DNA from: an uncultured Candidatus Binatia bacterium
GTDB lineage: Bacteria > Desulfobacterota > Binatia > Bin18
NCBI GenBank assembly: GCA_965214605.1
Contig: OZ243961.1
Coordinates: forward strand, 2,048,001 to 2,112,000
Length of the DNA stretch: 64,000 nucleotides
Direction of reading: 5' to 3'
The notes below the pieces were generated by a model. That model had not been told where the DNA came from. It did no database searches and was given only the letters and a program-made list of their open reading frames with translations. Both the position numbers and the translations under genes were made by a program. Below, one piece after another: positions 6,418 to 33,799 of this stretch. Positions within the stretch are counted from its first letter, which is position 1; each line of letters begins with the position of its first letter.

Positions 6418-6436
6418 CGTAAGATGACTCCTCTGG

Positions 6437-7099: not shown

Positions 7100-7112
7100 A
7101 ACAGAGACATAA

Positions 7113-7132: not shown

Positions 7133-7190
7133 GTCAAGGGAGGTGTAGCAAAATTTTCGCTTTTGACCTTTGCTTTCTCCCTTCACGAGG

Positions 7191-8720: not shown

Positions 8721-8901
8721 ACTCCCGCCTCCTCACGGGAGAGAAACGCGGGCTGGTCATCCATTGCGAGGATGTTCCTCGCTCTCCTTGCACCGAAGGA
8801 AAGTAGTCTAGCAGCCCTGCCCCGGCTGGAAACAGGGGGGACGTCGGCAAAAATATACGCTATGCTATACAGCGCTGAACAGCACAGAGGAGGAATAGAC
8901 G

Positions 8902-11260: not shown

Positions 11261-11282
11261 TGCTTTCCCCTTTCTTTACGTC

Positions 11283-11681
11283 CTACGTATGCTCAAGCTT
11301 GGCCCGTGCCTCACGCCCCTTGTCTGGAGTCGGATCTTTGACCACCCCGTAAATCTGGCGACCCTCATGATCTTCCGGTAGATGCTCGGTAATCGGCACG
11401 CCTTCGGGGGTCACAAACAGCAAACAGTGACAGTACTTCCACTGTTTCATCTCGTCGCAGGCGCACACCCATTCACGGCTCCGCTCGACCTCGGTCTTTT
11501 TATCCGGATAAAAATTGCACGGGCACAGCGGCCGGCCAACCTGGTCGATATTGCTGGCCAATCCCATAATAACCGACTCGGTAACCTCCTTATCTGGATG
11601 GGCAGAGGTGCCTGTTTTTTGGAGATACTTCTCAACGTAAATCCGCATCCTTCTGATGCTTTTTTCCGACGGCTGTTCCAT
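11283..11681 (-). CDS. Ferredoxin-thioredoxin reductase catalytic-subunit-like protein
   Basis: CPC...CAC...CHCLLF cysteine pattern of the FTR beta chain. Start moved to the ATG at 11681. Confidence 0.85.
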   Translation of the reverse strand: MEQPSEKSIRRMRIYVEKYLQKTGTSAHPDKEVTESVIMGLASNIDQVGRPLCPCNFYPDKKTEVERSREWVCACDEMKQWKYCHCLLFVTPEGVPITEHLPEDHEGRQIYGVVKDPTPDKGREARAKLEHT

Positions 11682-11832
11682 CGCGGTGCTCCCTTTCATG
11701 GGTTGGCTGCACAGTCTAGTATGGTCTTGTGGTCTTAAAAAGCTGTCGCTGATCTCGTCCATGGAATCGGTCCATCAATGATAGCTTCTATGCCACCCTC
11801 GGCAAAAGATAAAGGGCTTGAGAGTTATCAGC

Positions 11833-12810
11833 ATGTCAGAATCGAAGATTTACGTCACTCGAACCATTCCAGACCAGGCGCTGTCTGTACTCAGGCCGCG
11901 TGGACAGGTGCGGCTGTGGGAGGCGGATGAGACGGTGCCTCGGGACACCCTGCTGCAAGAGGTCCGGGACACGACCGCCCTGCTCAGCATGGTGACCGAG
12001 CGGATTGATGACGAGTTGATCGACCACGCCCCCCAGCTTACCATCGTCGCCAATATGGCGGTTGGTTACGATAATGTGGACGTCCCGGCTTTAAGCCGTC
12101 GTGGCGTACTGCTGACCAATACGCCGGGCGTCCTGACAGAGACAACTGCCGATCTCAGCTTTGGACTGATTTTAGGCATTGCACGCCGTATTGCCGAGGC
12201 CGACCAGTTTGTGCGAGATGGGGGCTGGCGATCGTGGGGACCCCTCTTTTTTGTAGGCCATGACGTTCACCATGCCACCCTAGGAATTATTGGTCTGGGC
12301 CGTATTGGCACCCAGGTTGCCCAGCGGGCTAAGGGTTTTGATATGCGGGTGGTCTACACAAATCGGGGCCGCAACCGAGAGGCAGAAGAGCGCTTAGGCT
12401 GCGTCCGGGTTGATTTGTCGACCCTCTTACGTGAATCAGACTTTGTGAGCATCCACGCTCCGCTTAGTCCACGCACTCGCCACCTGCTGTCAGGTCCAGA
12501 GTTTCGGCTGATGAAGAAGACCGCCTTTCTGATCAATGTGGCACGAGGACCCCTAGTCGATCAGCCTGCTCTGTATGAGGCGCTGCGGGATGGAGAGATC
12601 GCCGGCGCCGCCCTCGACGTAACCGACCCGGAACCGATTGCCACAGACGATCCGCTCTTGTCGCTCAAAAACTGCTTGATCGTTCCCCATATTGGCAGCG
12701 CGAGTCTTGACACCCGGATCCGCATGGCAACTCTGGCGGCCGAGAATATTGCGGCCTTTTTGGCCGGCGGACCACCGCCCACACCGGTTAATCCTGAGGT
12801 ATTAGCTTGA
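11833..12810 (+). CDS. D-2-hydroxyacid dehydrogenase (glyoxylate reductase/D-glycerate dehydrogenase)
   Basis: AVGYDNVD, GIIGLGRIG, INVARG, LDVTDPEP and PHIGSA motifs. Confidence 0.92.
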   Translation: MSESKIYVTRTIPDQALSVLRPRGQVRLWEADETVPRDTLLQEVRDTTALLSMVTERIDDELIDHAPQLTIVANMAVGYDNVDVPALSRRGVLLTNTPGVLTETTADLSFGLILGIARRIAEADQFVRDGGWRSWGPLFFVGHDVHHATLGIIGLGRIGTQVAQRAKGFDMRVVYTNRGRNREAEERLGCVRVDLSTLLRESDFVSIHAPLSPRTRHLLSGPEFRLMKKTAFLINVARGPLVDQPALYEALRDGEIAGAALDVTDPEPIATDDPLLSLKNCLIVPHIGSASLDTRIRMATLAAENIAAFLAGGPPPTPVNPEVLA

Positions 12811-15467: not shown

Positions 15468-16640
15468 TCAGGAATAGCTGGAGCGAACGCTTGTCAGGGA
15501 GGCAAGCGTCTCAACAACGAGGGTCGCCGCGCGCTCGATTTCTGCGTCGGTCGTGAAGCGGCCGAAGCTGAAGCGAGTGGAAGCCTCGATTGCTGCTGCC
15601 CCGAGACCGAGGGCGCGGAGGACATGGGACGGCTCAGGGATGCCCGAGGTGCAGGCCGCGCCGGTAGACGCGGCGAGGCGGGGTTGGAGAGAGCCGAGCA
15701 GGTCCTGGGCACTGAACCCGGCAAAGCGCAGATTGGCATTGCCGGGGTGGCGGTGGCCCCTGGGAGGCCCGTTGACGGCGACGGAAAATCGACTGCTGTG
15801 CAGCAGCCGTATGAAGGCATCGCGCTGCCGTGCCAGCCGTTTGCGCTCTGCGGCGCCTTCCGGCGTGCGAATGATCTCGGTCGCGGCCGCCATGCCGACA
15901 CAAAGCGCTAACGGGACGGTGCCGGAACGCAGTCCATTCTGCTGCCCACCGCCGTAGATCAAGGGTTCGATGCGCTCTTGCACGTCACGGCGAATGTAGA
16001 GTGCGCCGATCCCCTGCGGCCCATACACCTTGTGACCGGACAGACAGATCAGGTCGGCATGGACAGCAAGCTCGCTCACGTCTATGGCGCACGGTGCCTG
16101 GGCTGCGTCACAATGGAACACGGCACCGTGCGGAGCGAGCAGTGCGGCAATACGGGGAATGTCTTGAATGGTGCCGACCTCGTTGTTAACGGCCATGACT
16201 GACACGACAAGCACTGTATCGTCGAGTCGTTCTGCAAGCGCATCCAAGTTGATAAAACCTTGGCCGTCCACCGGGATGCGCTCTACTCTGAAGCCTTCGC
16301 GCTCTGCGAGCGACCGGGCGGCAGTCAGAACGCATTTGTGCTCGATAGCGCTGACCAGAATGCGCCGTCGCCCTGTGGGTGCCCGTCGCGCCAGGCCGAG
16401 CAGTGCCAGGTTATTCGCTTCGGTAGCGCCGGAGGTAAAAATCATCTCGTCGGTGTCGGCACCAATCAGCGCCGCCACGCATGACGCCGCCTCACGGACC
16501 GCCTCAGCCGCACGCCAGCCTATGATGTGATCGCTCGAATGGGGGTTGCCGAACGCTTCGCGCCAGTATGGCGCCATCTTTTCCACAACACGCGGATCGA
16601 CGGGCGTCGTCGCCTGGTAGTCGGAGTAGATGGTGTTCAT
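15468..16640 (-). CDS. sspA: Cysteine desulfurase (SspA/DndA/IscS-like)
   Basis: YSDYQATTP, GNPHS, SGATEANN, SGHKVYGPQG (PLP lysine) and STGAACTSG (catalytic Cys). Divergent from the ssp operon. Confidence 0.85.
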   Translation of the reverse strand: MNTIYSDYQATTPVDPRVVEKMAPYWREAFGNPHSSDHIIGWRAAEAVREAASCVAALIGADTDEMIFTSGATEANNLALLGLARRAPTGRRRILVSAIEHKCVLTAARSLAEREGFRVERIPVDGQGFINLDALAERLDDTVLVVSVMAVNNEVGTIQDIPRIAALLAPHGAVFHCDAAQAPCAIDVSELAVHADLICLSGHKVYGPQGIGALYIRRDVQERIEPLIYGGGQQNGLRSGTVPLALCVGMAAATEIIRTPEGAAERKRLARQRDAFIRLLHSSRFSVAVNGPPRGHRHPGNANLRFAGFSAQDLLGSLQPRLAASTGAACTSGIPEPSHVLRALGLGAAAIEASTRFSFGRFTTDAEIERAATLVVETLASLTSVRSSYS

Positions 16641-16731
16641 AATAGTCCTTTCGGCCCGAACTCGTACCTAGTAGACAGTACCCCACTCTCTTGGATATTG
16701 TCCATGGAACCGTTCCTTCGGATAAAAAGCC

Positions 16732-17685
16732 ATGTCCCGAGGCCCCTTATACCAAAACGCCTATCGCCCGCAGCTGTCGGGACATGAGACGTTTCCGCTC
16801 CGCTATGGCTGGCTGAAAAAGGCTTTTGAGGCGGTTCAGGCGAGCAAAGACCAGGGGCACAACAAGTCTATTTTCTCGGGCGAAGACGCCATCGCCCGGT
16901 TCGGCCTCGGCAAGAACATGGTTTCCTCCATGCGTCATTGGGCCGCGGCGGCGGGTGTCATTGAGGACAGTAGGGTGGACCGTCCCACCACTCTTGGACG
17001 GTCCCTGTTTGGTGCAGACGGACTCGACCCCTATATGGAAGACCCAGCTACGTCGTGGCTGGTCCATTGGCAGCTGTGCGGCCGTCCGAACAAGACTACC
17101 TACTTTTGGGCCTTCAGCCATTACCCAGCCCTGTCCTTCGAGCGCGAAACTTTGGTCAAAGCCCTTAACAAGCTCGCCAAGGAGCGCGATTGGAGTCGGG
17201 CGGCCGAGGCCACCATCAGAAGAGACGTCATCTGTTTCGTGCGTACTTATGTTGCGCAGCGTTCATCAAGACAAGCCAGCCAGGAAGACGCCCTAGAGTC
17301 CCCTTTGACCGAGCTTGGTCTGATTAAACGGGTGGGCAGGAGCGAGAGGTTCAGATTTGTCCGAGGGCAGAAGCCGTCTCTCGGTCCCGGCGTGTTCTGC
17401 TATGCGGTGACGGACTTCTGGGCTCGGTTTTCCAAAACCGCCGAGACGCTCTCCTTCGAGACCCTGGCTCACGAGCCCGGGTCGCCCGGTCGGGTCTTTC
17501 TGCTGGACGAAAACGATGTGGTAGATATGCTTGCAGGCCTGGAAGAGGTGAGTGAAGGTATCTACACATGGTCGGAGACGGCTGGTCTGAGACAGCTCAT
17601 CCGCAAGTGCGCATTGTCCGTCGAGGGTGCGCTTGACTTCATCAAGCTGGACTACGCTGCAAATGGCACGAGGAACGCCGCGTAA
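16732..17685 (+). CDS. sspB: DUF4007 family protein (SspB-like)
   Basis: SGHETFPLRYGWLKK, GLGKNMVSSMRHW and DPYMEDPATSWLVHW signature of DUF4007. Confidence 0.85.
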   Translation: MSRGPLYQNAYRPQLSGHETFPLRYGWLKKAFEAVQASKDQGHNKSIFSGEDAIARFGLGKNMVSSMRHWAAAAGVIEDSRVDRPTTLGRSLFGADGLDPYMEDPATSWLVHWQLCGRPNKTTYFWAFSHYPALSFERETLVKALNKLAKERDWSRAAEATIRRDVICFVRTYVAQRSSRQASQEDALESPLTELGLIKRVGRSERFRFVRGQKPSLGPGVFCYAVTDFWARFSKTAETLSFETLAHEPGSPGRVFLLDENDVVDMLAGLEEVSEGIYTWSETAGLRQLIRKCALSVEGALDFIKLDYAANGTRNAA

Positions 17686-20600
17686 TGGCCTTGGTTGATC
17701 GTGTCCATATCGCCCGACGCTTCCAGCGTGCGATCCGTATCGACACAGACCTTGCCGACTCAGCAGCTCTGCAGGGGTTCATCTGCCCGCCATCCTCCGC
17801 CAATATCCTCAAGACCATGGCGCGCCACGTTGCCGAGAATGGTCAAGGTGCCTTTACCTGGACTGGCCCTTATGGCAGCGGCAAATCAAGCTTGGCCGTG
17901 GCTTTCAGTGCCCTCCTCAACGGGGACGACGCTCTGAGGGACTATGCGGCCTCGGTTCTCGGCGAAAGGACGGCTGCTGCTGTCTGGGACGCGCTGCCGA
18001 CCCGCAACAAGGGCTGGCGCGTTCTGCCCGTTGTCGGTCGGCGCGACCGCCCAGCCCAGGTGCTTGGCGAAGCCATAGCGGCAGCCGGACTTTTGGCCGG
18101 TAAGGCTCCCCCCCCCCCCCCCAATTCTGGGAGCGAACAGCACACGCTGGAATGCCTCCAAAATCTCGCAGCACGGTATCCACGTGCCAGCGGTGGATTG
18201 TTGGTATTCATCGACGAGATGGGCAAGTTTCTGGAGGCAGCCGCTTACGACGGGACCGATATCTACTTCTTTCAGCAGCTTGCCGAGCTAGCTTCGCGCA
18301 GCAACAAGCGGCTCATCGTCGTCGGTATTCTCCATCAGGCGTTTGAAGAGTACGCCCATCGCTTGGCGCACGAGATGCGTGACGAGTGGGCGAAGATTCA
18401 GGGCCGGTTTGTGGACCTCGCTGTCAACATTAGCGGGGACGAACAGATTGCTCTTCTGAGCCGTGCTATCAAGAGCGACCGTGGGCCGGAGAAGCCGAGC
18501 CCCCTGGCCGAAGGCGTAGCCGCGCTGCGCAGACAGACGTCTCCACCCCTGGCGCAAATACTGGAAGACTGTTGGCCACTTCATCCCATAGTGGCCTGTC
18601 TGCTGGGCCCTCTGTCGCGGCGCCGATTTGGCCAGAACCAACGCAGCATCTTCGGGTTTCTCAATTCCACCGAACCGCAGGGCTTTCGAGACTTTCTGCG
18701 CTCCGCAGGTGACAGCGATCTCTATGCCCCCGACCGCCTGTGGGACTATTTGCGCATCAATCTGGAATCTTCCATCCTGTCCTCACCCGACGGCCACCGC
18801 TGGGCCTTGGCAGCGGATGTCCTGGAACGGTGTGAAGCCGTGGGTGGTGAGGAATTGCATCTGAGGCTGCTCAAGGCCATCGCGTTGGTGGATTTGCTGA
18901 AAGACCGCTCCGGCTTAGTCGCAAACCTTGATCTCCTGAAACATGCGTTGCCCGACTGTGGCTCGGAAGAGATCGGACAGGCCCTGGCAAAGCTGCAAGA
19001 CCAGGCGCTGATTATCTTTCGCAAGTTTAACAACGCCTATGCCGTCTTTGAGGGCAGTGACTTCGACATTGAGCACGCGGTAGAGCAGGCTTTGACGACC
19101 ATCAGCGAGGTAGACTTTGCCAGGCTCAACGCCCTTGCCGATCTGCAACCCATTGTGGCCAAGCGCCATTACCATGCCACAGGCACGCTACGGTGGTTTG
19201 ACGTAGCTCTTCTGCCATTAGTCGCAGTCGAACAGGCTGCGGCCAACTACACTCCTCAGCACGGCGCCGTCGGGGTCTTCTTCCTCGCGATTCCGACCCA
19301 GGGCGAAGGAGACCAGAAGATTGAACATATATGCCGCCGTGCGCTAGAGGGGTCTCAGGACTGGGACATTGTGGTTGGCTTGCCGCAGGACGCTTGGGAC
19401 ATCACGTCTCTTGCGCGGGAGCTGCTGGCCCTGGAGCAGGTCAGCGACGAGACACCTGAATTGCAAGGCGACCAAGTTGCGCGGCGCGAGGTTGAAGCCC
19501 GCATCGTGTTGCTCCAAGGGCGGCTGGAAAGCGAACTGACCCGCGCGTCCAACAACGCGCTCTGGTATCGGAGACACCACCGTGCCGAGCCGCTTACACG
19601 GGCTGAGCTTAACAGCCTGGCATCTGAATTGGCAGACGCGCGCTTTAAGAAATCGCCGCGCTTACATAACGAGCTTTTGAACCGCAGCAAACCGTCGAGG
19701 AATGGGGCGGCCGCGCGGAATACGTTGCTGCGGAGAATGGTCCTCAACGAAGGCGAAGCGCGCCTTGGTATTGAGGGCTTTCCCGCTGAGGGCGGGCTGT
19801 TCGCATCGCTGCTAGAGGCGACCGGGCTGTACCGAAGAACGGTTCAGGGCTGGACCTTTGTCGCGCCCACGGCCAATGACGAAGATACGCGCAACCTTGG
19901 GCCGGCTTGGCAAGCGGCAACGAAGCTTCTGGAAAACAATGCGGACCGCACGGTATCAGCCGCCGAGGTATACGATACCTGGCGTCGGGCGCCGTTCGGT
20001 ATCAAAGACGGGCTGTTACCGGTACTGATGGTAGCATTCATCCTGTCGCACCGTCGCGATCTGGCCTTCTATCGTCAGGGCATCTTTCAGGCGCGTATGT
20101 CTGATCTGGACATGGATTACCTCGTCAAAGACCCGGCCGACATTCAGCTACGCTGGATGGACCTTTCGGATGCGTCGCGTCGGCTTCTTTCCGACATGGC
20201 AGCCATCGTTCGCGAGCTGGACGAGGAAAATGCGTTGACTAACCTGGAGCCCATTGATGTGGCCAGAGGGTTGGTGGCGATCTATGACCGGCTGCCACCG
20301 TGGGTGTCCCGCACGCAGCAGCTTTCCGCTAATGCGAAACAGGTCCGGCAGTTATTCAAGCAGGCCAACGACCCGAACAAGCTGATTTTTGACGACATCC
20401 CCAACCTGCTGGGCGGCGGGACCGCTATCCACGAAGGCGACGCCCTGTGTCGAATCGTAGAGCAGGTGCGCGAGGGACTGAGAGAACTGCGCGACGCCTA
20501 CCCCTCAAGGCTATACCGTCTGCGGGAAACGCTGCTGGCCGAGCTGGAAGTACCAAATGCCTCGCCCCCAATGCTGGCTGAACTACACGACCGTGCTGAG

Positions 20601-21083
20601 AACGTCCGTCAACTAGGCGGCGATCACCGCTTGGAAGCCTTCATCGTCCGACTTGGGCAGTTTCAGGGCAGCAATGAAGAGATGGAGAGCCTAGCCAGTA
20701 TGGCGACCAATAAGCCGGCCCGAAACTGGGTGGACGCTGATATTGACCGGGCAGCGGTTGAGTTGGCGCAAATGGCGCAGCAATTCATTCGCGCGGAAGT
20801 CTTCGCCCATGTCAAGGGACGGCCGGACAAACGACACGCCATGGCCGTAGTGGTGAGTATGGACGGCCGACCGACACCGGTCCATGACGAGTTTGACATC
20901 ACCGACCTGGAACGGGGAAAGGTAGACACACTGATCGACCAGGTAGATGCCGCTCTCAATCACAGCGGCGAAAAACGGCGGAACATCATCCTGGCCGCTC
21001 TGGCCGAGCTGAGCGCCCGGTATCTCAGGGCTGCAGCGGATACCCCGGCCAAGAGCCTGGGCAAGAAGTGGGAGGCGTCGTGA
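17685..21083 (+). CDS. sspC: Large ATPase (SspC-like)
   Basis: Walker A GPYGSGKS, Walker B VFIDEMGKFLE, WPLHP and GQNQRSIFGFL; lies between the DUF4007 and PAPS reductase genes. Confidence 0.8.
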   Translation: MALVDRVHIARRFQRAIRIDTDLADSAALQGFICPPSSANILKTMARHVAENGQGAFTWTGPYGSGKSSLAVAFSALLNGDDALRDYAASVLGERTAAAVWDALPTRNKGWRVLPVVGRRDRPAQVLGEAIAAAGLLAGKAPPPPPNSGSEQHTLECLQNLAARYPRASGGLLVFIDEMGKFLEAAAYDGTDIYFFQQLAELASRSNKRLIVVGILHQAFEEYAHRLAHEMRDEWAKIQGRFVDLAVNISGDEQIALLSRAIKSDRGPEKPSPLAEGVAALRRQTSPPLAQILEDCWPLHPIVACLLGPLSRRRFGQNQRSIFGFLNSTEPQGFRDFLRSAGDSDLYAPDRLWDYLRINLESSILSSPDGHRWALAADVLERCEAVGGEELHLRLLKAIALVDLLKDRSGLVANLDLLKHALPDCGSEEIGQALAKLQDQALIIFRKFNNAYAVFEGSDFDIEHAVEQALTTISEVDFARLNALADLQPIVAKRHYHATGTLRWFDVALLPLVAVEQAAANYTPQHGAVGVFFLAIPTQGEGDQKIEHICRRALEGSQDWDIVVGLPQDAWDITSLARELLALEQVSDETPELQGDQVARREVEARIVLLQGRLESELTRASNNALWYRRHHRAEPLTRAELNSLASELADARFKKSPRLHNELLNRSKPSRNGAAARNTLLRRMVLNEGEARLGIEGFPAEGGLFASLLEATGLYRRTVQGWTFVAPTANDEDTRNLGPAWQAATKLLENNADRTVSAAEVYDTWRRAPFGIKDGLLPVLMVAFILSHRRDLAFYRQGIFQARMSDLDMDYLVKDPADIQLRWMDLSDASRRLLSDMAAIVRELDEENALTNLEPIDVARGLVAIYDRLPPWVSRTQQLSANAKQVRQLFKQANDPNKLIFDDIPNLLGGGTAIHEGDALCRIVEQVREGLRELRDAYPSRLYRLRETLLAELEVPNASPPMLAELHDRAENVRQLGGDHRLEAFIVRLGQFQGSNEEMESLASMATNKPARNWVDADIDRAAVELAQMAQQFIRAEVFAHVKGRPDKRHAMAVVVSMDGRPTPVHDEFDITDLERGKVDTLIDQVDAALNHSGEKRRNIILAALAELSARYLRAAADTPAKSLGKKWEAS
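18108..18122 (+). repeat. C15 homopolymer inside sspC
   Basis: GGCT-CCCCCCCCCCCCCCC-AATT, currently in frame (PPPPP). Confidence 0.9.
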
Positions 21084-21094
21084 GGAGGGCGGAG

Positions 21095-21922
21095 ATGGAA
21101 CGGCATGTGCTCGGACTGTCCGGCGGGCGCGACAGCGCAGCGCTCGCGGTCTACATGCGGGAGAATCATCCTGAGCTGGCTATTGACTACTTTTTTACCG
21201 ATACTGGCAAGGAGCTGCCGGAGGTATACGAGTTCCTGGTCAAGCTCGAAGGCTTCCTGGGCAAACCCATCCTACGCTTGAACCCGGATCGGGATTTCGA
21301 CTTCTGGCTCAAGCAGTACAACAACTTTCTGCCCTCACCGCAGACACGCTGGTGTACGCGCCAACTCAAACTTCGGCCGTTCGAGCAGTGGATTCGGCCC
21401 TTCTTGGACGACGGAGATCGCGTCTACAGCTATGTGGCTATCCGCGCGGACGAGGAATACCGCGAGGGCTATGCCTCAAAGCACGCTCACCTTACGGTGC
21501 GGCTACCCTTCAAGGAGGCTGGTATCGACAAATCGGGTGTCCTGGAGATTTTGGAGGGTACGGGCCTCGGCTTGCCCGAGTACTACGAATGGCGGACCCG
21601 TAGCGGCTGCACGTTTTGCTTCTTCCAACAAAAGATTGAGTGGGTGCGGCTGAGAGAGCGCCATCCGGACTACTTTGAGGAAGCCAAGGCGTATGAGAAA
21701 GACGCGGTCGAGCACGGCTCGCCTTTCACCTGGAGCCAAGGTGAATCGTTGGAGGAGCTTTCCAAACCCGAGCGTATGAGGCAGATCAGAGCGGACCACG
21801 AACGGCGGGTTGCTCGTATGCGGTCCAAGGTTCGGCCTAATCCGCTCAGGCCGGATAGTGAGCCTTTGGATATTGATGATCTTTACGGTCAGGCAAAGGT
21901 TTGTCTTGCATGCCACAAATGA
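21095..21922 (+). CDS. sspD: PAPS-reductase family protein (SspD-like)
   Basis: PP-loop LSGGRDS, RWCT, RSGCTFCFFQ and C-terminal CLACHK. Confidence 0.85.
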   Translation: MERHVLGLSGGRDSAALAVYMRENHPELAIDYFFTDTGKELPEVYEFLVKLEGFLGKPILRLNPDRDFDFWLKQYNNFLPSPQTRWCTRQLKLRPFEQWIRPFLDDGDRVYSYVAIRADEEYREGYASKHAHLTVRLPFKEAGIDKSGVLEILEGTGLGLPEYYEWRTRSGCTFCFFQQKIEWVRLRERHPDYFEEAKAYEKDAVEHGSPFTWSQGESLEELSKPERMRQIRADHERRVARMRSKVRPNPLRPDSEPLDIDDLYGQAKVCLACHK

Positions 21923-24051
21923 CAAGATTGACCCCATCTTCAGCAACCGAAAAATCCTCGAACGCTGCACAATTGGCTCCCTGGGGCCGCTCCCCAACGC
22001 CTCTCCTGCCGTGTTGGTATCGTGAGATGCTCTCCGAGTTCCGGCTCCCTAAAGCAGTGAGGAGGGCCAATTCAGCGGTTGCGACAGTCGGCGAGCTCAA
22101 TACGTTCTGGAAGGAAGCACGGTCACCGCTTGACCATAAGGGCCTCCTTTCTCTGGTGGAGCTTGTTGGCCGCCATCGTCCTCCGCAGGACTATGTCGTC
22201 ATTCCTGCAGAGATTGATCACCGTGAGATCGCCCAGTATCCGCTGCGGACACGAACGGCCAATATCCTCCGCCGAGAGGGCTTGCTTGAGGGGCATAGCG
22301 TCCTCTCGGTGGGTGAATTGCTGTCACTTAGGGGCTTCGGTATTCTCTCTCTCCTGGATATCATGTGCGTTGCTGAACTCGCGCTGACAGGACGAGTCTC
22401 ACCGTTTGCCGCCCCTAGAGCTGAGAGCATCGACGGTGAAGAACCAAGCCCGCAGTTTGCCACCCCTAGAGCTGAGAGCATCGACGGCGAAGAACCAAAG
22501 CCGGAGACGAGTGCTTGGAGCAGTGCAGTCGAATTATTTAAGCCGCTGCTCGCCGCTGCCCGCGAGTTCTACGGAGCTGGAACCGTGGGCGATGCATTGC
22601 GCTTGGACCTCTCTGGGCTCGCCGCAACGATCGGAGTTGCGCCGGCTCTCGAGTCCCTCCCAATCCAGGATCTGACAACTCGCCGCATATCCAACACTGT
22701 GACCGAACGGCTTGCATCGCTGCTGGCATCAATGTCGGCAACGCGGAAGCTGATTCTCGAACAGCGAATCTTCGTGCCCAGTCCCCGTACGCTCCAGGAG
22801 CTGGCAGAACAGATCGGAGTCACAAGAGAACGTGTAAGGCAGCTCGAGGTACGAGTGTTGGACACCGTCGAGGACGCTGTTGGATCCGAGATCAGCATTC
22901 TCGCAACCCTCCTTATCGAGCAGCTAGATCCTCTCATCACATCTGCCGAATTCGAACGTTTGGTCGCCGATGTGTTCGCCGATGGCTCGCCGATGGAACC
23001 AGCGAGCCATCTAGCCTGTCGGATGCTCAAATCCCGGCTCAATTACTCGTGTGCCGCTGGTATCTGTTTCAACGAGGCTGCAACTGCCGTCGTTGCGGCA
23101 CTACGGGAGAGGGCTGGCGAGGTTGCCGACGATGTGGGCCTGATTGACGAGGAAGCCTTGTGTGATCCTTTCCTAGAAGAGTGGAACGGCTACATTTCGC
23201 AACTTATTGAGCTATGTGAGCTTCATAGGATCGGGGGTCGTCTCGCGCTAAGAGACACCAGTAAAGCACGAGTCAAAGCTGCGCTTCTCAATATTGGACA
23301 AGCAGCTACAAAAGAGGAGATAGCGGCAGTCTGCGGGCTTGATCCTCCCCGGGTCGGCGGCCACCTTTCCGTGATCCCTACAGTGGTCAGGGTGGACAAG
23401 ACCCGTTGGGGGCTCGCCGAATGGACCGACGACGCATACCAAGGCATCCCGGCCGAGATCATTCAGCGGATCAACGAAGACGGAGGGACCACCCCTCTTC
23501 AGAGGCTCCTTGATGAGCTGCCGAGACTATTCCAAGTGAAGGAATCCAGCGTCCGAGCTTATGTCGGTGCGCCACAGTTCACACTCTCCGACGGTTACGT
23601 CAGTTTAGCCAACGAGTCGTCAATCACCCTCCGCGATCTCGACGATGTCATCGATGGTCGTGACGCGTCCGGTAACCCATATTGGACGTTTCTCGTTGAG
23701 AACCGTTACCTTGATGGACATAGTCTTGTGGGCTTCCCGCCGGAGCTGGCCCGGGAACTTGGCTGTGAGCCCAACGATAAGACACAGGCACTCGTGACCT
23801 ATCCGGAAGGCAGCAGCGCACTGTCTGTTGTCTGGCGGCTCGCTTCGCTTACGGGTGCCAGCCTGGGACATCTCGCTGATCCGCTCCGACGACTCGGGGT
23901 GAGCGGTGGAGATCGCGTTTGCCTGGTCATCAAAGGTCCTGGTGTCATCGACCTGCGCCGGGAGAGCATAACGGTGTCGGTGGAGGAAAGCTCCGACACG
24001 GCGGCGGATTCTTTGCTTGCACGCATGAAGAACCGCCGGAGGGTGATATAA
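21919..24051 (+). CDS. RNA polymerase alpha-CTD-like and sigma70 region-4-like multidomain protein
   Basis: PLRTRTANILRREG...VGELLSLRGFGILSLLDI (alpha-CTD-type HhH) and RTLQELAEQIGVTRERVRQLE (sigma-4 HTH). ATGA overlap with the sspD stop. Confidence 0.7.
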   Translation: MTRLTPSSATEKSSNAAQLAPWGRSPTPLLPCWYREMLSEFRLPKAVRRANSAVATVGELNTFWKEARSPLDHKGLLSLVELVGRHRPPQDYVVIPAEIDHREIAQYPLRTRTANILRREGLLEGHSVLSVGELLSLRGFGILSLLDIMCVAELALTGRVSPFAAPRAESIDGEEPSPQFATPRAESIDGEEPKPETSAWSSAVELFKPLLAAAREFYGAGTVGDALRLDLSGLAATIGVAPALESLPIQDLTTRRISNTVTERLASLLASMSATRKLILEQRIFVPSPRTLQELAEQIGVTRERVRQLEVRVLDTVEDAVGSEISILATLLIEQLDPLITSAEFERLVADVFADGSPMEPASHLACRMLKSRLNYSCAAGICFNEAATAVVAALRERAGEVADDVGLIDEEALCDPFLEEWNGYISQLIELCELHRIGGRLALRDTSKARVKAALLNIGQAATKEEIAAVCGLDPPRVGGHLSVIPTVVRVDKTRWGLAEWTDDAYQGIPAEIIQRINEDGGTTPLQRLLDELPRLFQVKESSVRAYVGAPQFTLSDGYVSLANESSITLRDLDDVIDGRDASGNPYWTFLVENRYLDGHSLVGFPPELARELGCEPNDKTQALVTYPEGSSALSVVWRLASLTGASLGHLADPLRRLGVSGGDRVCLVIKGPGVIDLRRESITVSVEESSDTAADSLLARMKNRRRVI
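22404..22498 (+). repeat. 51-bp tandem duplication
   Basis: FA(A/T)PRAESIDGEEP is encoded twice, with units starting at 22404 and 22455. Confidence 0.9.
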
Positions 24052-24052
24052 C

Positions 24053-26302
24053 GTGCTCGCCGACGAACCTACACTTCGCCCAGGGCTTTATCGGTTACCT
24101 GACCATCCAGTCGGACCGAGCGTTTTCATCCCTGCGTTTCGATCCGCCACATCCATCCGGGGTGCGTTTGGCTGGTTCACGTCCGGCTGGATAGCAAGAC
24201 TAGCTCCTGGGCTTGCCGAGTACCTCAATCGCCACGATACAACGCCAATTGACTTCACCGTTGCACCGGCTCTCTTCGCCGCAGAGCGAGCAGTCATCGA
24301 ACAGGCTTATAGCATGTCGGAAGAAGAGGCAGCACGACGGGTCGCTGACGTGTTCGTTGACGGCCGAGTTAAGGCCTCAGCACTTGGTCGCCACGCTTTG
24401 GATTGCCTGGCCTGGATGGTTGCCACTAGACGGCTGCATCTTCGCATCGCCGTCCCAAAGGCAGCAGCAAACTACCATCCCAAGATTTGGCTATTTGACG
24501 ATGGCACCCACCAAGTCCTTGCTCGCGGCTCCGGCAATGCTACCGGGCGTGGGGTCGCCTCCGGTGTCGAACACCTCGATGTTGATGTCACATGGTTCGA
24601 CTACAGTCGCGCTCGTGTTCGAGACGGCGTTGAAATCCTCAACGATTGGGCACAAGGACGTAGCGACGGAATTGAGCGCGTAGTCGAACTCCCTGAAGCC
24701 CTGGAACAGAACATCGTTTACACCGCTCCAGAGATCGCACCGAGTCAAGCCGATTACATCAGGGCAGCGAGCGAGGACGGGAACCCGGCGTGGGCGGTCG
24801 ATCGGACCGAATCGTTACGGAAACGGTTTGCGCCAATGCGCTCTGCAGAACTCCCTCGCCTAACGATTCCCAGGGGATTAGAGTGGCAACAGGGTCCCTA
24901 CGCCCATCAAAACGAGGCGGTTACGGCCTGGGAATCAGATCCAAATCCCGAACAGGGTACGATCTCCATGGCAACTGGAGCAGGCAAGACGCTCACGGCA
25001 CTGATATGCGCTACTCGTGTACAAGATCGCCTCTCTGATAAGCCCCTACTCATTATTATCTCGGCACCATCCATCCCGCTCGTCGTTCAGTGGCGAGAGG
25101 AGGTTAAGAGATTCGGAATTCATGCCACTGTCCCGAGCCTCGAACCTAACACCGACTTCGCTATAACCAACCTGTTTCGAGGTCTCGTCTCAGGCGGAAC
25201 CCATATAGCAATCGTAACCAATAACCTCCTCTGCTCGCCGGCATTTCAATCCACCGTGGCGCTCAAGATCAGACGCGCCAACTCTTCGGTCCAGACAATG
25301 TTCATCGCTGACGAGGCCCACACACTCGGCGCAGACGGATTCATCTCGAACAAGCCGGACTTCTTCGAGCGACGACTTGCCCTTTCAGCTACCCCCGAAC
25401 GTCAGCACGATCCTGACGGTACCGAAGAGATATTCGATTTCTTCGGGCCACCAGTCTACGAGTTTGGACTCGAACGAGCCATTGGATTCTGCCTAGCTCC
25501 ATATAACTACTACGTCCACGCCGCCACTCTCGATGGCGACGAGCTGGACGAGTTCGAGGCCCTCACTGGCCGGATTGGAGCAGCTTTTGGTCGAGACCTC
25601 GACGATGACGACGATACCCTAACTAGCTTGCTGATCGCGAGGAGAAGGATCATCGAAACTGCCCAAGCCAAGCTGTTACTCCTCCGGACAGTGCTCGAAC
25701 AACGCGGCCCACGTTCGCTGGAACAGACGCTGATCTACGCCTCCGCCAAGAATCCTGAGCAATTCGATAACATTGCCGCGACGCTTACCGATCTCGACAT
25801 TAGGTGGGCTCCCGTCACCCAAGATACAACTGCCAACCGACCATTACTCGCTCAGACCCTTGAGACATTTAGTGAGGGTGGCTACCAGGTCCTGTTAGCC
25901 AAGAAAGTCCTTGATGAGGGCATCGATATCCCTAGCATCAGGGAAGCATTCATTGTTGCTTCATCCACAGTTAAACGAGAATGGGTCCAGCGACGAGGCC
26001 GCGTGCTCCGACGCCATCCCGAAAAGCCCTGGGCGATCATTCACGACTTCCTCGCGCTACCACCGACACAAATGCTCCAACCTGAGGAAGAGACAAACAT
26101 GAAGAAGATCATCCGGGTCGAGTTGGACCGCGCCTACTCCTTCGCTGCACATGCGAGGAACGCTGTTGGTGATGAAGGAGTGCTCTCCGATCTCCAGAGG
26201 ATTAGAACCGCCTACTGGCCCGAGGAAGAACGTTCGCCGATCCTGCGGCAAGCCGGTGACAGCATCATCGCTGCTGCAACGCCACGAGGAAAACCATGGT
26301 AA
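24053..26302 (+). CDS. PLD-nuclease/SF2 helicase fusion (PbeA-like)
   Basis: N-terminal YHPKIWLFDD...GSGNAT (HxK/GSxN); helicase motifs ATGAGKT, DEAH, SAT, DEGIDIP and QRRGRVLR. Confidence 0.8.
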   Translation: MLADEPTLRPGLYRLPDHPVGPSVFIPAFRSATSIRGAFGWFTSGWIARLAPGLAEYLNRHDTTPIDFTVAPALFAAERAVIEQAYSMSEEEAARRVADVFVDGRVKASALGRHALDCLAWMVATRRLHLRIAVPKAAANYHPKIWLFDDGTHQVLARGSGNATGRGVASGVEHLDVDVTWFDYSRARVRDGVEILNDWAQGRSDGIERVVELPEALEQNIVYTAPEIAPSQADYIRAASEDGNPAWAVDRTESLRKRFAPMRSAELPRLTIPRGLEWQQGPYAHQNEAVTAWESDPNPEQGTISMATGAGKTLTALICATRVQDRLSDKPLLIIISAPSIPLVVQWREEVKRFGIHATVPSLEPNTDFAITNLFRGLVSGGTHIAIVTNNLLCSPAFQSTVALKIRRANSSVQTMFIADEAHTLGADGFISNKPDFFERRLALSATPERQHDPDGTEEIFDFFGPPVYEFGLERAIGFCLAPYNYYVHAATLDGDELDEFEALTGRIGAAFGRDLDDDDDTLTSLLIARRRIIETAQAKLLLLRTVLEQRGPRSLEQTLIYASAKNPEQFDNIAATLTDLDIRWAPVTQDTTANRPLLAQTLETFSEGGYQVLLAKKVLDEGIDIPSIREAFIVASSTVKREWVQRRGRVLRRHPEKPWAIIHDFLALPPTQMLQPEEETNMKKIIRVELDRAYSFAAHARNAVGDEGVLSDLQRIRTAYWPEEERSPILRQAGDSIIAAATPRGKPW

Positions 26303-26517
26303 ACAATTACGATCGTATCTACGCCGAAATTGAGAAGGAAGCACTGCGTTCTTCTCAGGAGCAGAACATTGACTCGGATGTGCTTGTTCGCTTAGTCATG
26401 GAAATCGTGAACCTTGAGGACCAGCACCACACCAAGAATGTTTCGCGCATCAAACAACGCATCGAACAGATGATCCTCACCACAGCGAGGGACCAAATGA
26501 TGCGCGAGGGATTGTAG
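26296..26517 (+). CDS. Small helical protein associated with the CxC ATPase (PbeB-like)
   Basis: 73 aa; overlaps the helicase stop and sits 2 bp before the ATPase. Confidence 0.65.
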   Translation: MVNNYDRIYAEIEKEALRSSQEQNIDSDVLVRLVMEIVNLEDQHHTKNVSRIKQRIEQMILTTARDQMMREGL

Positions 26518-26519
26518 CG

Positions 26520-28754
26520 ATGTTGAGATTCTGTCGAATTGAGATCAACAACTTCGTCTGCTTCAAAGACATCGTGATCGAACCCTCCATCGATCCAGAG
26601 AGACGACTCACTGTACTAAGAGCGGAAAACGGTTCGGGAAAAACTACTCTTCTCCGCGCGCTCCGATGGGGTATGTATGGCGAAAAGGGCCTACCCGGAG
26701 ATTCGACTCGGTTCTCACTCCACCCTTCCTGGTGGCACCCCAACGGCGACGGTATCAAGACAGAGGTTAAGATTGAGTTCGAGACCGACGGCTCCACCCG
26801 GTACTCCACAGAGGGCAGCCCCATCACCACCGTCTATCATCTCGTACGGTCTGTCACTACGATTGGCAGGCCGACAGCCAAGGATGATGAACCCGACTTC
26901 CGCCGTCTCAACGAACATACACAACTAATGGTCAAGGAGAGTGGTGGGACATGGACTCGACATACTGTGGGAGTTGACATCGTCGTCGAACAGCTTCTCC
27001 CGTGGAATCTCCGCGATTTCTTCGTGATGGATGCTGACGAAGCGACTGACTTCGTCGGCGGCGGCGAGAACAAGGTCATGAACCGTCAGGACGTTATCGA
27101 CAAGACAACCGCAGCCGTGCACAGCCTTCTAGGTCTCGATGTCTTCAAGAAGGCATCGGAGCGGGTGACGGCTCTCGCCCGATCATTCGGTTCGCAGGCC
27201 ACAAAAGCTATTGGCGACACAGACCTTGACGCGCTCTGGGCGGAGCTTGAGCAGCTCAGGGCGGAGGAGGCTGACCTCACGAAGAAGATCGTGGAACAGC
27301 AAACCCAGAAGAGAGAGCTAGAAGACCAGCTGCGACGGCGGCAGGACGCCCTCGAAACCGAACTCAAAGGCATTGGTGCCGCCGAGGAGCTGAGGAGCCG
27401 CCTCACAGCGAACCGAGATCGGTCTGCGCAAGCCACTAAGGCACGGAAAGCTACGCTCAGCCACCTGGCCGGCACCCTCGAATCGACCGATCTTCTCGCC
27501 TCGCTCGCGCGTAGCGAGCTCGCCACGGCCTACCGCCTCCTGCGGCCGCTCTATGAACAAGGCCACATTCCCCTCACACATCTCAACTTCGTACGAGACC
27601 TCCTCGAATCCGGCACTTGCGTTTGCGGTCAAGACCTCTCCAACGATGACGTGCCTCGCCGACATGTGGAAGAGCGGATTGCTGAATCCGCAACACAGGA
27701 GGACCGCGCCAACTACCTCGGTCAGCTCCACGATGCGGCGAAGTCTCTTAGGGACCAAGCGGTGGCCCCACAATGGGAAACGCGGAGCCGACGACTCGCG
27801 GCGGACCTCGCTGAGATCGATAAGGAGATCGCCAATCTCGCGCTTGAAAAGCGAGATATCGACAACAAACTCGACGCCCTTGATGCAGATAAAATAGAGA
27901 TCATCCGCGACGAAATCGAGGCGCTAAAGACCCAAGTGGGGAGCCTGCAAAGCACCATCGCCATCAACCAGAGTCGGCATCCAGCCCTCCTCAGCACCAT
28001 CGATTCCCACCAGAAGCAGATCGACCAGCGGCACCGTAACGAACGAGCTGCTGCTGACAAACGGGCGGCGGAGGGCATGGCGCATCTCGTCGTCACAATC
28101 CTTGAACAGGCCTACGGTACTATCCAGGCAGAACAGGTCGGCGATCTCTCTCAGCGAATGAATCGCCTCTTCACTCAGATGGCAGCAAACGTCTCGGACG
28201 AAGACTACGAAGAGATACCACGCGACAAGGCGACGCTCAAAATGATCGCCGAAGTCGGCCTTCGGCCTGTCGACGACAAGTCCGACAACTACGAGATCTA
28301 CGCGTTCAACCGCCGAGGCCGTTCCATGCCTCCAACCGAGATCAATGGTGCTTCCCGCCGAGTGCTCGCATTGTCATTCGTGCTCGCGCTGTGCGCTGAG
28401 TCTCGGACTCATGCCCCCTTGATTGCAGACTCGCTACTCAACTTCATGTCAGGCACGGTACGACGCAACACGCTCCGTATCACCGCAGAGAATTCCAACC
28501 AACCGATCCTTCTGCTGACCGGAGCTGACCTCCAAGCGCCGTCAGAAGCTGAGCTTGTGTCTCGGTACGCCGGCGCTACCTACACTCTCACCGGCCAGTG
28601 GGATGCAATCGCTGCTGGTTCAGGAGGAGACGTCGTGCACTGGACCGAACAACGTCCGGTGTCACTCGTTTGCCCATGCGGACCCCGTCAATATTGCGAT
28701 ATCTGCGAACGGACCGGACAAGCTGAGTTACCGGGATGGAGCAGGAGGACCTAG
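26520..28754 (+). CDS. SMC/Rad50-like ABC ATPase with CxC zinc hook (PbeC/DndD-like)
   Basis: Walker A AENGSGKTT, long coiled coils, central CVCG hook, Walker B LIADS and a C-terminal CPC...CDIC. Confidence 0.8.
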   Translation: MLRFCRIEINNFVCFKDIVIEPSIDPERRLTVLRAENGSGKTTLLRALRWGMYGEKGLPGDSTRFSLHPSWWHPNGDGIKTEVKIEFETDGSTRYSTEGSPITTVYHLVRSVTTIGRPTAKDDEPDFRRLNEHTQLMVKESGGTWTRHTVGVDIVVEQLLPWNLRDFFVMDADEATDFVGGGENKVMNRQDVIDKTTAAVHSLLGLDVFKKASERVTALARSFGSQATKAIGDTDLDALWAELEQLRAEEADLTKKIVEQQTQKRELEDQLRRRQDALETELKGIGAAEELRSRLTANRDRSAQATKARKATLSHLAGTLESTDLLASLARSELATAYRLLRPLYEQGHIPLTHLNFVRDLLESGTCVCGQDLSNDDVPRRHVEERIAESATQEDRANYLGQLHDAAKSLRDQAVAPQWETRSRRLAADLAEIDKEIANLALEKRDIDNKLDALDADKIEIIRDEIEALKTQVGSLQSTIAINQSRHPALLSTIDSHQKQIDQRHRNERAAADKRAAEGMAHLVVTILEQAYGTIQAEQVGDLSQRMNRLFTQMAANVSDEDYEEIPRDKATLKMIAEVGLRPVDDKSDNYEIYAFNRRGRSMPPTEINGASRRVLALSFVLALCAESRTHAPLIADSLLNFMSGTVRRNTLRITAENSNQPILLLTGADLQAPSEAELVSRYAGATYTLTGQWDAIAAGSGGDVVHWTEQRPVSLVCPCGPRQYCDICERTGQAELPGWSRRT

Positions 28755-28766
28755 AGGCAAGAGTCC

Positions 28767-29252
28767 ATGAACTACTTCACCACTTTATTGTCTTCTCAAA
28801 CCCACACCCTTCGCTTTCCGAGCCAGGATAAGGACGCCATCGAACGGTACGTGCTCCAGCATCAGAAAGGGACTGTTAGCCAGGAGCACGCTCCCTTCCG
28901 GCGCCAGGTGGACTTCTGGGCTTTCGCTATTGCCACCGCTCTCGCGCGTAGAGTACCGCCGCTCAAAAAACCCTCTAGTCGCTGGGGACGGAAGTTCGCC
29001 GACACCAGATCCGTACAGATGCCGGATGGGCTGTGCGAAATGCTCGCCGTCATCGCTCTGACCACGCTGGGCCACGATCATGAAGGTATAGACGACCCCT
29101 CGCAGATCATTGAGCTGGGCAACCGGCTCGCAGGGGCTGGATGTCCAGCACTCCTCAAGCAGCTTAGCAACCCGGATCTGCGTACCACCGTTCTCGACAA
29201 AGCCCTGGAGTTCGCAAGGCTTCTACAATCCGAAGCAAACACCGCGGCCTAA
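28767..29252 (+). CDS. Small protein ending the operon (PbeD/DndE-like)
   Basis: 161 aa with PFRRQVDFWAFA; position matches the last gene of CxC-ATPase modules. Confidence 0.55.
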   Translation: MNYFTTLLSSQTHTLRFPSQDKDAIERYVLQHQKGTVSQEHAPFRRQVDFWAFAIATALARRVPPLKKPSSRWGRKFADTRSVQMPDGLCEMLAVIALTTLGHDHEGIDDPSQIIELGNRLAGAGCPALLKQLSNPDLRTTVLDKALEFARLLQSEANTAA

Positions 29253-32830: not shown

Positions 32831-33727
32831 TCAAGACGCCTCTTCCGCGGCCTGGCTGTCCAGGCCGAGCATATAATCGGCGGCCCGCTGGGCCTGGGAA
32901 GCGGCCTGCACCAGTAGCCGCGGGTCATTGCTCAACTTGTCCCGCCACCCTTGCACATAGCCCGCGCTGGTGGCCGGCGTGCGGTTTTCAATCCCCGCTA
33001 CCCCACACAGAAAGGCGGCCCCCATCTCGACTACCAGCTCCTCCTTGCTATAGTGGGTATCCCCGAAGCGGACCGCGTCAACCAGCGTCGCGCGATTCAA
33101 CCGCCCGGCGTGGCCGGTGGCGTGTGTCAGCTCATGAAAAAGGGTCGAATAGTACCGCTCCGGGGCCTCGAAGCTGCCCGCCGCCGGCATCGTCACCTGG
33201 TCAACGCGCTGTCGATAAAAAGCAGCATCCCCCCCGTGCGTGATAGCCGGCCGCCCCGGCATATCCGCCACAATCTTTTCACACGCGGCGATTTTTTGGG
33301 CGGGGGCCATGTCCGGCACACCCACCTGCGTCCGCTCTGCCCACGCCTCGGGTAATACGCAGTGCGCGGCGTTGAACACAGTATACGCGCGGGCCAGGGC
33401 GTAGCCGCCCCGCTCTGTGCGGTCCTGCTCTCCGTCCTGCGCGCGCCCCGTGCGGGCCATGAATTTCCAGAATATGACGGTCTGGCCTTTCGCCCCTTTT
33501 TTGACGTGGCCGCCTCTCTGTGAGGCTTGCCGATAGGTCAACCAAAACGGCGACCCCTCGTGCTGATGGGACAAGAGAAACACATTCAGCCCCCGGTACG
33601 GCTTCCCACTGATGAGAGTGCGCGGCGCGCCCTCGGCCGCGGTCCACGGGCGATGCCACGGCACCACCCCGGCTTTGAGGGCGGAAACGATCCGGTCAGT
33701 AATTGTCGTGTACACGTCCGGGCTCAT
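32831..33727 (-). CDS. ardC: ArdC-family anti-restriction protein
   Basis: GVVPWHRPW, YRGLN, WLTYRQA...VKKGAKG, zincin HELTH and EELVVEMGAAFLC. Confidence 0.9.
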   Translation of the reverse strand: MSPDVYTTITDRIVSALKAGVVPWHRPWTAAEGAPRTLISGKPYRGLNVFLLSHQHEGSPFWLTYRQASQRGGHVKKGAKGQTVIFWKFMARTGRAQDGEQDRTERGGYALARAYTVFNAAHCVLPEAWAERTQVGVPDMAPAQKIAACEKIVADMPGRPAITHGGDAAFYRQRVDQVTMPAAGSFEAPERYYSTLFHELTHATGHAGRLNRATLVDAVRFGDTHYSKEELVVEMGAAFLCGVAGIENRTPATSAGYVQGWRDKLSNDPRLLVQAASQAQRAADYMLGLDSQAAEEAS

Positions 33728-33761
33728 TTGGGCCTCCTGCTCTCCTTCACAACACAGATGC

Positions 33762-33799
33762 TTGTTTTCGGTTCTCACCACTGCCCGGACCGAAAACAA
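33762..33799 (-). promoter_or_regulatory. Conserved leader hairpin upstream of ardC
   Basis: 11-bp perfect stem with loop CCGGGCAGTGGTGAGA. A second copy lies at 48564-48603. Confidence 0.6.

Follow-up and report, generated by a model that had tools for sequence, protein, structure and literature searches.

Can a phosphorothioate (PT) writer of the Ssp type be joined to an effector cassette of the Pbe type? This question is raised by a locus at positions 15468-29252 of a 64,000-nucleotide (nt) stretch of DNA from an uncultured Candidatus Binatia bacterium (contig OZ243961.1, positions 2,048,001 to 2,112,000), hereafter the window; coordinates are those of the window, position 1 being its first letter, and its own genome is referred to as G000. 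Ssp systems have been described as placing PT on a single strand, with SspA and SspD mobilizing sulfur, SspC serving as ATPase, and SspB binding or nicking DNA; the motif described in Vibrio is 5'-CpsCA-3'. In published surveys, 2,211 of 2,678 sspBCD modules occurred without sspE or sspFGH (Wang et al., 2021; PMC8092258) and 320 of 553 PbeAC pairs without dndCD (Xiong et al., 2019; PMC6459918), so that both Ssp and Pbe have unexplained partners. Here, sspABCD and a Pbe-type cassette are combined in one compact operon, and a single additional gene, X716, separates them. We class the locus as an Ssp writer coupled to a Pbe sub-type of five genes, and the arrangement is conserved.

An Ssp writer and a five-gene Pbe cassette in one operon

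The locus comprises nine open reading frames (ORFs), one divergent on the minus strand and eight co-directional on the plus strand. Within the plus-strand series, four pairs of neighbours overlap (by 1, 16, 22, and 7 nt) and three are separated (by 1, 2, and 12 nt). These coordinates and junctions agree with the preliminary description, made from the letters of the window, which gave a divergent desulfurase gene and eight co-directional genes overlapping or lying at most 12 bp apart. The gene order is sspA (divergent), followed at 16732-29252 by sspB, sspC, sspD, X716, pbeA, a gene for a protein of 73 amino acids (aa), pbeC, and pbeD. PADLOC assigned six of the nine proteins unambiguously, i.e., SspA, SspB, SspC, SspD, PbeA, and PbeC, and searches of the locus proteins against NCBIfam returned sub-threshold matches only. 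The 91-bp spacer between the divergent sspA and sspB genes (16641-16731) probably serves as promoter region for both sspA and the operon of eight genes, and contains one sigma-70-like match (16672-16701). This assignment is made by position, since the promoter scan of the region gave no excess over shuffled sequences (five sigma-70-like matches against 4.1 expected); the terminator scan of the region likewise gave a count no higher than in shuffles.

The writer genes match Ssp models throughout and retain their motifs. The sspA gene (15468-16640, minus strand) encodes a cysteine desulfurase of 390 aa that matches PADLOC SspA (E-value 4e-128), PADLOC DndA (1.6e-125), and Pfam Aminotran_5 (1.7e-76), with its active-site residues present, i.e., the pyridoxal phosphate-binding lysine K204 in SGHK and C330 in AACTSG. 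On the plus strand, sspB (16732-17685) encodes a DUF4007 DNA-binding subunit of 317 aa (PADLOC SspB 5.4e-107; Pfam DUF4007 9.4e-88, 294.5 bits against a cutoff of 27), and sspC (17685-21083) a large BrxC-like P-loop ATPase of 1132 aa (PADLOC SspC 1331.8 bits over aa 4-1058) with a Walker A motif GPYGSGKS at residues 61-68 and a Walker B motif LLVFIDE. The sspD gene (21068-21922, plus strand; its true start is perhaps the ATG at 21095) encodes a PP-loop sulfur transferase of the phosphoadenosine phosphosulfate (PAPS) reductase family, 284 aa long, that covers the PADLOC SspD model over 1-277 of 277 positions (3.3e-138; Pfam PAPS_reduct 8.7e-7) and carries SGGRDS at residues 18-23 and cysteines at 96, 181, 184, 279, and 282. 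All parts by which an SspABCD module is recognized are present: a DUF4007 SspB, an SspC with Walker A and B motifs, a short SspD of the PAPS reductase family, and a linked desulfurase SspA. This SspD is the only one in the G000 assembly, where the next match (27.8 bits) is a generic PAPS reductase.

Downstream, pbeA (24053-26302, plus strand) encodes a 749-aa protein with an HKD (phospholipase D, PLD) nuclease domain and a superfamily 2 (SF2) helicase. It matches PADLOC PbeA (1.3e-151), Pfam ResIII, DEAD, and Helicase_C, and TIGR04095, named 'DNA phosphorothioation system restriction enzyme' (6.3e-94, under the cutoff of that model). Its HKD motif, H142-x-K144-x4-D149...G159-S160-x-N162, is invariant in 13 of 13 aligned PbeA proteins, and its helicase part retains motifs I, II, III, and VI (GAGKT, DEAH, SAT, and QRRGRxxR). 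The pbeC gene (26520-28754, plus strand) encodes a CxC-hook ABC ATPase of 744 aa (PADLOC PbeC 4e-44, DndD 2.4e-19; Pfam AAA_23 4.1e-16) with an NGSGKT P-loop and the hook C367-V-C369 in mid-protein. PADLOC, Pfam, and motifs thus agree with the preliminary naming of the DUF4007, ATPase, PAPS reductase, PLD-helicase, and CxC-hook ATPase genes. PbeC also has a second cysteine cluster at its C-terminus, CPCx5CxxC (residues 718-729; window 28671-28706), which may be a small zinc knuckle.

The two small proteins of the cassette were placed by other means. The gene in the pbeB position (26296-26517, plus strand) overlaps the pbeA stop by 7 nt, and its 73-aa product matched no PADLOC or Pfam hidden Markov model at E-values up to 10. 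We name it PbeB by position and size, since no model matches it, as would be expected of a fast-evolving protein; the PbeB of the type system has 66 aa (PMC6459918), and in the loci that reach this gene its position is kept, with 41-73% identity. The pbeD gene (28767-29252, plus strand) encodes a 161-aa protein for which an AlphaFold2 model was built from 19 sequences (mean predicted local distance difference test score, pLDDT, 86.4; predicted template modeling score 0.83). Against 48,161 PDB representatives, the first two ranks were taken by both solved DndE structures: 7x4e_A (Z 8.3, root-mean-square deviation (rmsd) 3.6, 114 of 114 residues) and 5wtu_A (Z 6.7). The third rank was an F-plasmid relaxosome chain (Z 6.6), after which the fourth falls to Z 4.4. 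Tests at the sequence level failed: no PADLOC or Pfam match appeared at E-values up to 10, the family profile found no DndE among PDB sequences, hhalign returned nothing against the DndE of locus L086, and the PADLOC DndE model did not pick up this protein when run on the genome. Because of this, the match is counted at the level of the fold only, and Foldseek gave no significant E-value for the model; the all-against-all structural search gave the one clear result, and on this ground the protein appears to be the DndE cognate PbeD. Its family spans at least 229 clusters, all labelled 'hypothetical'.

Taken together, the PADLOC matches of PbeA and PbeC and the predicted DndE fold uphold the earlier view of these downstream genes as Pbe/CxC members. 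As in CxC ABC-ATPase systems, an HKD-SF2 helicase, a small protein, a CxC-hook ABC ATPase, and a DndE cognate all occur here. However, the cassette has five genes rather than the four by which Pbe is defined, with X716 directly 5' of pbeA. The type system, DndCDEA-PbeABCD, comes from the archaeon Haloterrigena jeotgali A29; it needs all four pbe genes, loses protection without its dnd writer, and suffers no toxicity from writer loss, and PT-modified virus escapes it (Xiong et al., 2019; PMC6459918). In contrast to that system, the host here is bacterial, a fifth gene precedes pbeA, and the writer is of Ssp type (DUF4007, BrxC-like ATPase, and short PAPS reductase) instead of DndCDE.

X716, the fifth gene of the Pbe cassette

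We examined where X716 (21901-24051, plus strand; start perhaps at the ATG at 21910), which encodes an unnamed multi-domain DNA-binding protein of 716 aa, occurs and what accompanies it. Among 61 related genomes, full-length X716 was found only in G000 and in G036, a member of the same family but another genus. The G036 protein is 76% identical, and its gene stands in the same nine-gene order as in the window. A query with the C-terminal part of X716 matched 0 of 400 other genomes in a phylum-wide sample, five of which contain PbeA-like genes, so that Pbe cassettes with X716 make up a minority sub-type. A tblastn search of plasmids with X716 gave no match. A scan of genome contigs with the full-length X716 alignment returned 58 loci, 56 of them ordinary sigma factors, because one scan pattern is a sigma-factor motif; the other two, L001 and L002, hold weak partial relatives.

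A metagenome scan with the X716 C-terminal alignment returned 16 loci, and 20 loci (these 16 together with L069, L070, L001, and L002) were compared by tblastn with the nine proteins of the window. The full order SspA-B-C-D-X716-PbeA-small-PbeC-PbeD was found in 9 of the 20, and three further loci (L073, L076, and L078) are cut by contig ends and consistent with it. Several loci are near-identical, i.e., L075 equals L077, L078/L079/L080 are 99.6-100% identical, L073/L074 99.9%, and L081/L083 92%; once such copies are removed, there are nine distinct Ssp-X716-Pbe loci including that of the window. The conservation of gene order on which the preliminary description depended was thereby borne out, in G036 as well as in metagenomes. 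In L082 and L084, X716-PbeA-small-PbeC-PbeD lies behind a desulfurase, and SspB, SspC, and SspD were not matched. The loci L085-L087 contain distant relatives of X716 (29-32% identity), again directly 5' of PbeA; PADLOC detected DndB, DndC (3.4e-198), and DndD just downstream in L087, and DndD and DndE on the opposite strand in L086.

Two properties of these loci bear on the role of X716. In G036, and in each of the 16 metagenome loci, it lies immediately 5' of PbeA, and because this holds for the metagenome loci whatever the writer, we assign it to the Pbe side. In addition, 13 of 13 distinct X716-Pbe loci with enough flanking sequence adjoin a module of the desulfurase/PAPS-reductase type: nine Ssp, two Dnd (L086 and L087), and two of another kind (L082 and L084). 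X716 was also considered as a component of Ssp and rejected as such: the closely related Ssp modules of the genomes G006 and G004 are not followed by it, and it occurs in Dnd-linked Pbe loci. Hence the earlier proposal of a mixed writer/effector system with one extra component stands with respect to the tight Ssp-Pbe operon, but the extra gene is not specific to the hybrid.

The writers of L082 and L084 may represent a third kind of sulfur-modification module. Both loci combine a PAPS-reductase-like protein, weakly matching SspD (3e-10 and 5.5e-10), with PDC-M33A-like proteins. The regions concerned (1093-8969 in L084 and 2657-8556 in L082) encode a desulfurase, a long PAPS-reductase-like protein of 446 or 586 aa, and a PDC-M33A-like GHKL ATPase; L084 additionally contains DUF6339 and methyltransferase-like genes.

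At the sequence level, the only curated domain of X716 is sigma-70 region 4 (Pfam Sigma70_r4, 4.9e-8, aa 274-321). The preliminary description had seen a protein combining sigma region 4 with a C-terminal domain of the RNA polymerase alpha subunit (alpha-CTD). The former part was supported; the latter was not, as Pfam gave no match when X716 was searched in four pieces, the putative alpha-CTD stretch among them, alpha-CTD chains were absent from the top 50 fold matches, and PF03118 (alpha-CTD) had been precomputed in just 2 of 120 X716 homologues among the matches listed. The family comprises at least 145 clusters in a database clustered at 90%, all unnamed; named relatives are few, all 'hypothetical protein', from Gemmatimonadota and Candidatus Poriferisodalis. 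The C-terminal 317 aa matched 235 representatives in a 50% library at E <= 1e-30 and 451 at E <= 1e-10, and the ESM Atlas returned only unnamed clusters or ones automatically named 'RNA polymerase subunit sigma-70'.

An AlphaFold2 model of X716 (48 sequences, pLDDT 86.4), with low confidence in the first 21 residues, the linker 167-201, and residues near the C-terminus, was used for structural searches. These matched residues 262-332 to a sigma region 4 fold (Z 9.0, 29% identity to sigma-32), residues 451-508 to a winged helix (Z 8.9), residues 513-571 to a second winged helix (Z 7.8), and residues 584-693 to a B3-type pseudobarrel. The barrel most resembles the B3-like N-domain of LlaJI.R1 (6c5d_B; Z 8.7, rmsd 2.9, 96 aa), followed by VRN1 (Z 8.6) and VAL1/ARF (Z 7.5-8.0); since these Z values are middling, we regard a B3-like barrel in X716 as moderately supported. 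A Foldseek search of the PDB with X716 gave nothing at E <= 0.001, and its list includes, weakly, the BfiI chain 2c1l_A (E-value 0.054). The restriction enzyme BfiI couples a B3-like DNA-binding barrel to an HKD nuclease; here, in contrast, the barrel (X716) and a single HKD domain (PbeA) would lie on separate proteins, and the barrel scores are those middling ones. A complex prediction of X716 with PbeA residues 1-275, run without controls, scored 0.00 and counts neither way. The disordered linker (aa ~170-203, window ~22400-22520) contains a short tandem duplication, PRAESIDGEEP twice, that is missing from all 15 aligned homologues.

Two exchangeable cassettes and the alternatives

We consider it rather likely that the locus is a PT-based defence operon built from two exchangeable cassettes, an Ssp writer and a five-gene Pbe effector, and we infer that the Pbe machine reads Ssp marks. 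By homology, the writer cassette of SspA and SspBCD would transfer sulfur from cysteine to the host chromosome, as PT within a short motif of a single strand. The effector cassette, X716-PbeA-PbeB-PbeC-PbeD, would be a five-gene form of the Pbe/CxC-ABC-ATPase system. Within it, the zinc-hooked, Rad50-like ATPase PbeC and the DndE-fold protein PbeD may load on DNA and scan it; in published work PbeC-PbeD are read as a DNA-scanning pair and PbeA as a nuclease, and PbeD is described as the cognate of DndE (Rakesh et al., 2024; PMC10853773). PbeA, combining a single HKD domain with an SF2 translocase, is the putative effector and would block replication of unmarked incoming DNA; its activity would depend on PT. 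The 73-aa protein may be a small regulatory or structural subunit, and X716 a DNA-recognition subunit that reads the site or the mark and targets or licenses PbeA. A further-reaching proposal is that X716 constitutes a new family of PT or site readers licensing PbeA behind Ssp, Dnd, and third writers, with the 3' end of sspD as a recombination hot spot; we put this forward tentatively, as possible but less likely than not.

The identity matrices indicate that the two cassettes are exchanged. Among the Ssp-X716-Pbe loci there are two Ssp lineages, with SspC just 25-28% identical between them, and the same X716-Pbe lineage, in which PbeA identity is 57-84%, accompanies each. Since two Ssp lineages share one Pbe lineage, and since sister Ssp modules occur without Pbe, the effector genes that follow sspD have been replaced on more than one occasion. 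The Ssp-Pbe junction has thus been repeatedly selected or re-formed. In G006 and G004, whose SspD proteins are 82-87% identical to that of the window, other genes follow sspABCD: an 815-aa GHKL-type ATPase beside a Panacea-domain protein in G006 (L088, G006:C1:580000-599500, at 9346-11793, minus strand), and GHKL-type ATPase proteins, from genes of 810, 801, and 633 aa, in G004 (L089, G004:C4:768000-787500, at 5630-12374, plus strand). These GHKL-type proteins gave no SspE, SspFGH, or Pbe match and may be further unnamed Ssp partners.

Several observations weigh against the reading of the locus as one PT-based system. Experiments on a PT-dependent block of viral DNA replication concern the archaeal system only (PMC6459918), and both PT and defence are predictions for the present locus. 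The nearest SspC (74%) and SspD (87%) of the window belong to its congener G006, where sspABCD lies elsewhere in the chromosome and without Pbe, and the Ssp module of L069/G036 is nearest to that of G004 (SspC 87%, SspD 96%), which also lacks Pbe. The sequence comparisons show that Ssp writer and Pbe effector do not co-evolve, as reported for DndCD and PbeAC (rho 0.107; PMC6459918). Weak relatives of X716 in the Corynebacterium metagenome-assembled genomes L001 and L002, which cover aa 258-576 only at ~30% identity, have no Ssp or Pbe match within 10 kb; the sigma-4 and winged-helix core may thus also exist outside Pbe systems. The Z scores of the X716 folds (7.5-9.0) are in the middling range of the tool and may reflect common arrangements.

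Finally, the genome contains another candidate partner for the writer. The preliminary description held that SspE and SspFGH are lacking, and within the window this is correct: no SspFGH match was found there, nor any SspE match among the 19 window proteins scanned. For SspFGH it is true of the window only, because the genome carries a complete but distal SspF-SspG-SspH cassette (G000:C1:3059315-3068081), ~0.99 Mb from the sole sspABCD. Its proteins of 620, 508, and 1794 aa match SspF (128 bits), SspG (134.7 bits, 3-476 of 476), and SspH (1399 bits, 1-1253 of 1255), models that had no match in any of 14 control genomes. This distal cassette could be the working partner of the writer. For SspE, three models run on G000 matched a 579-aa GmrSD-like gene (C1:2.39 Mb) only in part, at 20-41 bits; at other positions the genome has five generic GmrSD_N genes. 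A 98.7% identical copy of sspFGH fills most of the 14.6-kb contig C4 (C4:4800-13500), and may be either a genuine duplication or a variant produced by assembly.

In one alternative, two independent systems share an island and a promoter, i.e., SspABCD writes for the distal SspFGH (or leaves an orphan epigenetic mark) and X716-PbeABCD is a self-contained, PT-independent CxC system. The genome has one SspD and an SspFGH cassette, and SspFGH is toxic without PT (PMC8092258), therefore needing this writer; CxC systems without PT writers are reported from many taxa and have been argued to act often independently of them (Rakesh et al., 2024, PMC10853773; PMC6459918), a view that counts against PT dependence at our locus too. 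The lack of co-evolution between the cassettes and the other defence-like genes of the ~41.5-kb island described below would also fit. Several features speak against independence. The genes overlap within one operon, the junction is kept in eight further distinct loci with two Ssp lineages, and a sulfur-transfer module adjoins every distinct X716-Pbe locus with enough flank. Moreover, SspH occurs in 6 of the 61 related genomes but in none of G036, G004, and G006, and none of the 20 compared loci yielded an SspFGH homologue. As G036 (98% complete) has the nine-gene operon and no SspH match, Pbe is the sole recognizable partner of the writer there. We therefore consider two wholly independent systems unlikely, and in G000 the same Ssp writer probably also serves the distal SspFGH.

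Two other alternatives concern single components. X716 might be a mere transcription regulator, sigma-like or of helix-turn-helix type (compare BrxR or DndB), rather than an effector subunit, given that sigma-70 region 4 is its sole curated domain, that extra winged helices are typical of regulators, and that look-alike clusters carry automatic sigma-70 names. Nevertheless, a protein of 716 aa with at least five domains is encoded inside the operon between sspD and pbeA, 1 nt from pbeA and neither at the operon head nor divergently, and travels with PbeA whatever the writer, all of which makes a purely regulatory role distinctly unlikely. Alternatively, Pbe could act by abortive infection, with PbeA attacking the DNA of its own cell once a phage factor removes or modifies the small protein, and with PT playing no discriminating part. 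The rapid evolution of the small protein has led to such a mode being proposed for CxC systems (PMC10853773), and a small protein is kept in position at this locus. Yet the type system needs its writer and is escaped by PT-modified virus (PMC6459918), and abortive infection would leave the constant adjacency of sulfur-transfer modules unexplained; we regard it as very improbable.

The surrounding island and the meaning of the pairing

The Ssp-Pbe locus forms the left end of a ~41.5-kb genomic island, since synteny with five congeners runs up to ~12.8-14.8 kb of the window and resumes from ~56.3 kb; the island is absent from all five, and in G002 the same two flanks lie ~410 bp apart. No tRNA-linked integration site was seen, because the tRNA scan of the window was empty. 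Other island genes encode ArdC-like (32831-33853) and ParA-like (36921-37934) proteins, a protein with Schlafen AlbA_2 and HATPase_c_4 domains (37931-39217, minus strand), and a 769-aa fusion of Prok-E2_A, ThiF, and JAB domains (E2-E1-JAB; 43270-45579, minus strand). The gene for this fusion is overlapped by that of a 423-aa protein with weak LmuA/MBL-like matches (45576-46847, minus strand), and a second ThiF protein, DUF6791-ThiF, is encoded at 54536-55513 (minus strand). At 49086-53150 (plus strand) lies the gene for a 1354-aa protein with an N-terminal HTH_3 domain only and no PADLOC match.

Among known systems, the locus shares its writer module with SspABCD-SspE and SspABCD-SspFGH, where one writer can serve both effectors additively (Wang et al., 2021; PMC8092258). 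Unlike in those systems, the adjacent effector is neither SspE nor SspFGH; the candidate effectors here are the adjacent Pbe and the distal SspFGH. Combination with modification modules by 'mix and match' is a described theme of CxC systems, which are reported as coupled to DndD-centred PT modules, to cytosine methylases, or to none (PMC10853773). In the text searched, that study mentions neither coupling to SspBCD nor a partner of sigma-4, winged helix-turn-helix, or B3-like type. More widely, the literature text searched, excluding figures and supplements, contained no joining of SspBCD to PbeABCD/CxC, no sigma-HTH partner of PbeA, and no X716 family, although supplementary files of two of these studies (Supplementary Data S1 in PMC10853773, Supplementary Data 4 in PMC6459918) may list such neighbourhoods. 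The PADLOC category 'PT_other', as described, would flag such loci without a name. With this scope, the Ssp-Pbe pairing and the X716 family seem to be previously undescribed. In principle the pairing is unsurprising, since both fields already expected further partners (PMC8092258; PMC6459918).

The locus links two open lists, in that at least some Ssp writers regarded as 'orphan' and at least some 'solitary' Pbe cassettes adjoin in one operon. One writer with two effector sets, Pbe adjacent and SspFGH distal, offers a case in which PT-based defence might be additive. The occurrence of closely related Pbe cassettes behind Ssp, Dnd, and a third writer, always with X716, amounts to a natural experiment on PT sensing by Pbe. 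Should X716 turn out to read the mark, PT recognition would have a new protein that differs from the ScoMcrA-type sulfur-binding domain. Were the broader proposal true, one Pbe machine would be pluggable behind single-strand Ssp marks, double-strand Dnd marks, and the products of a third desulfurase/PAPS-reductase module.

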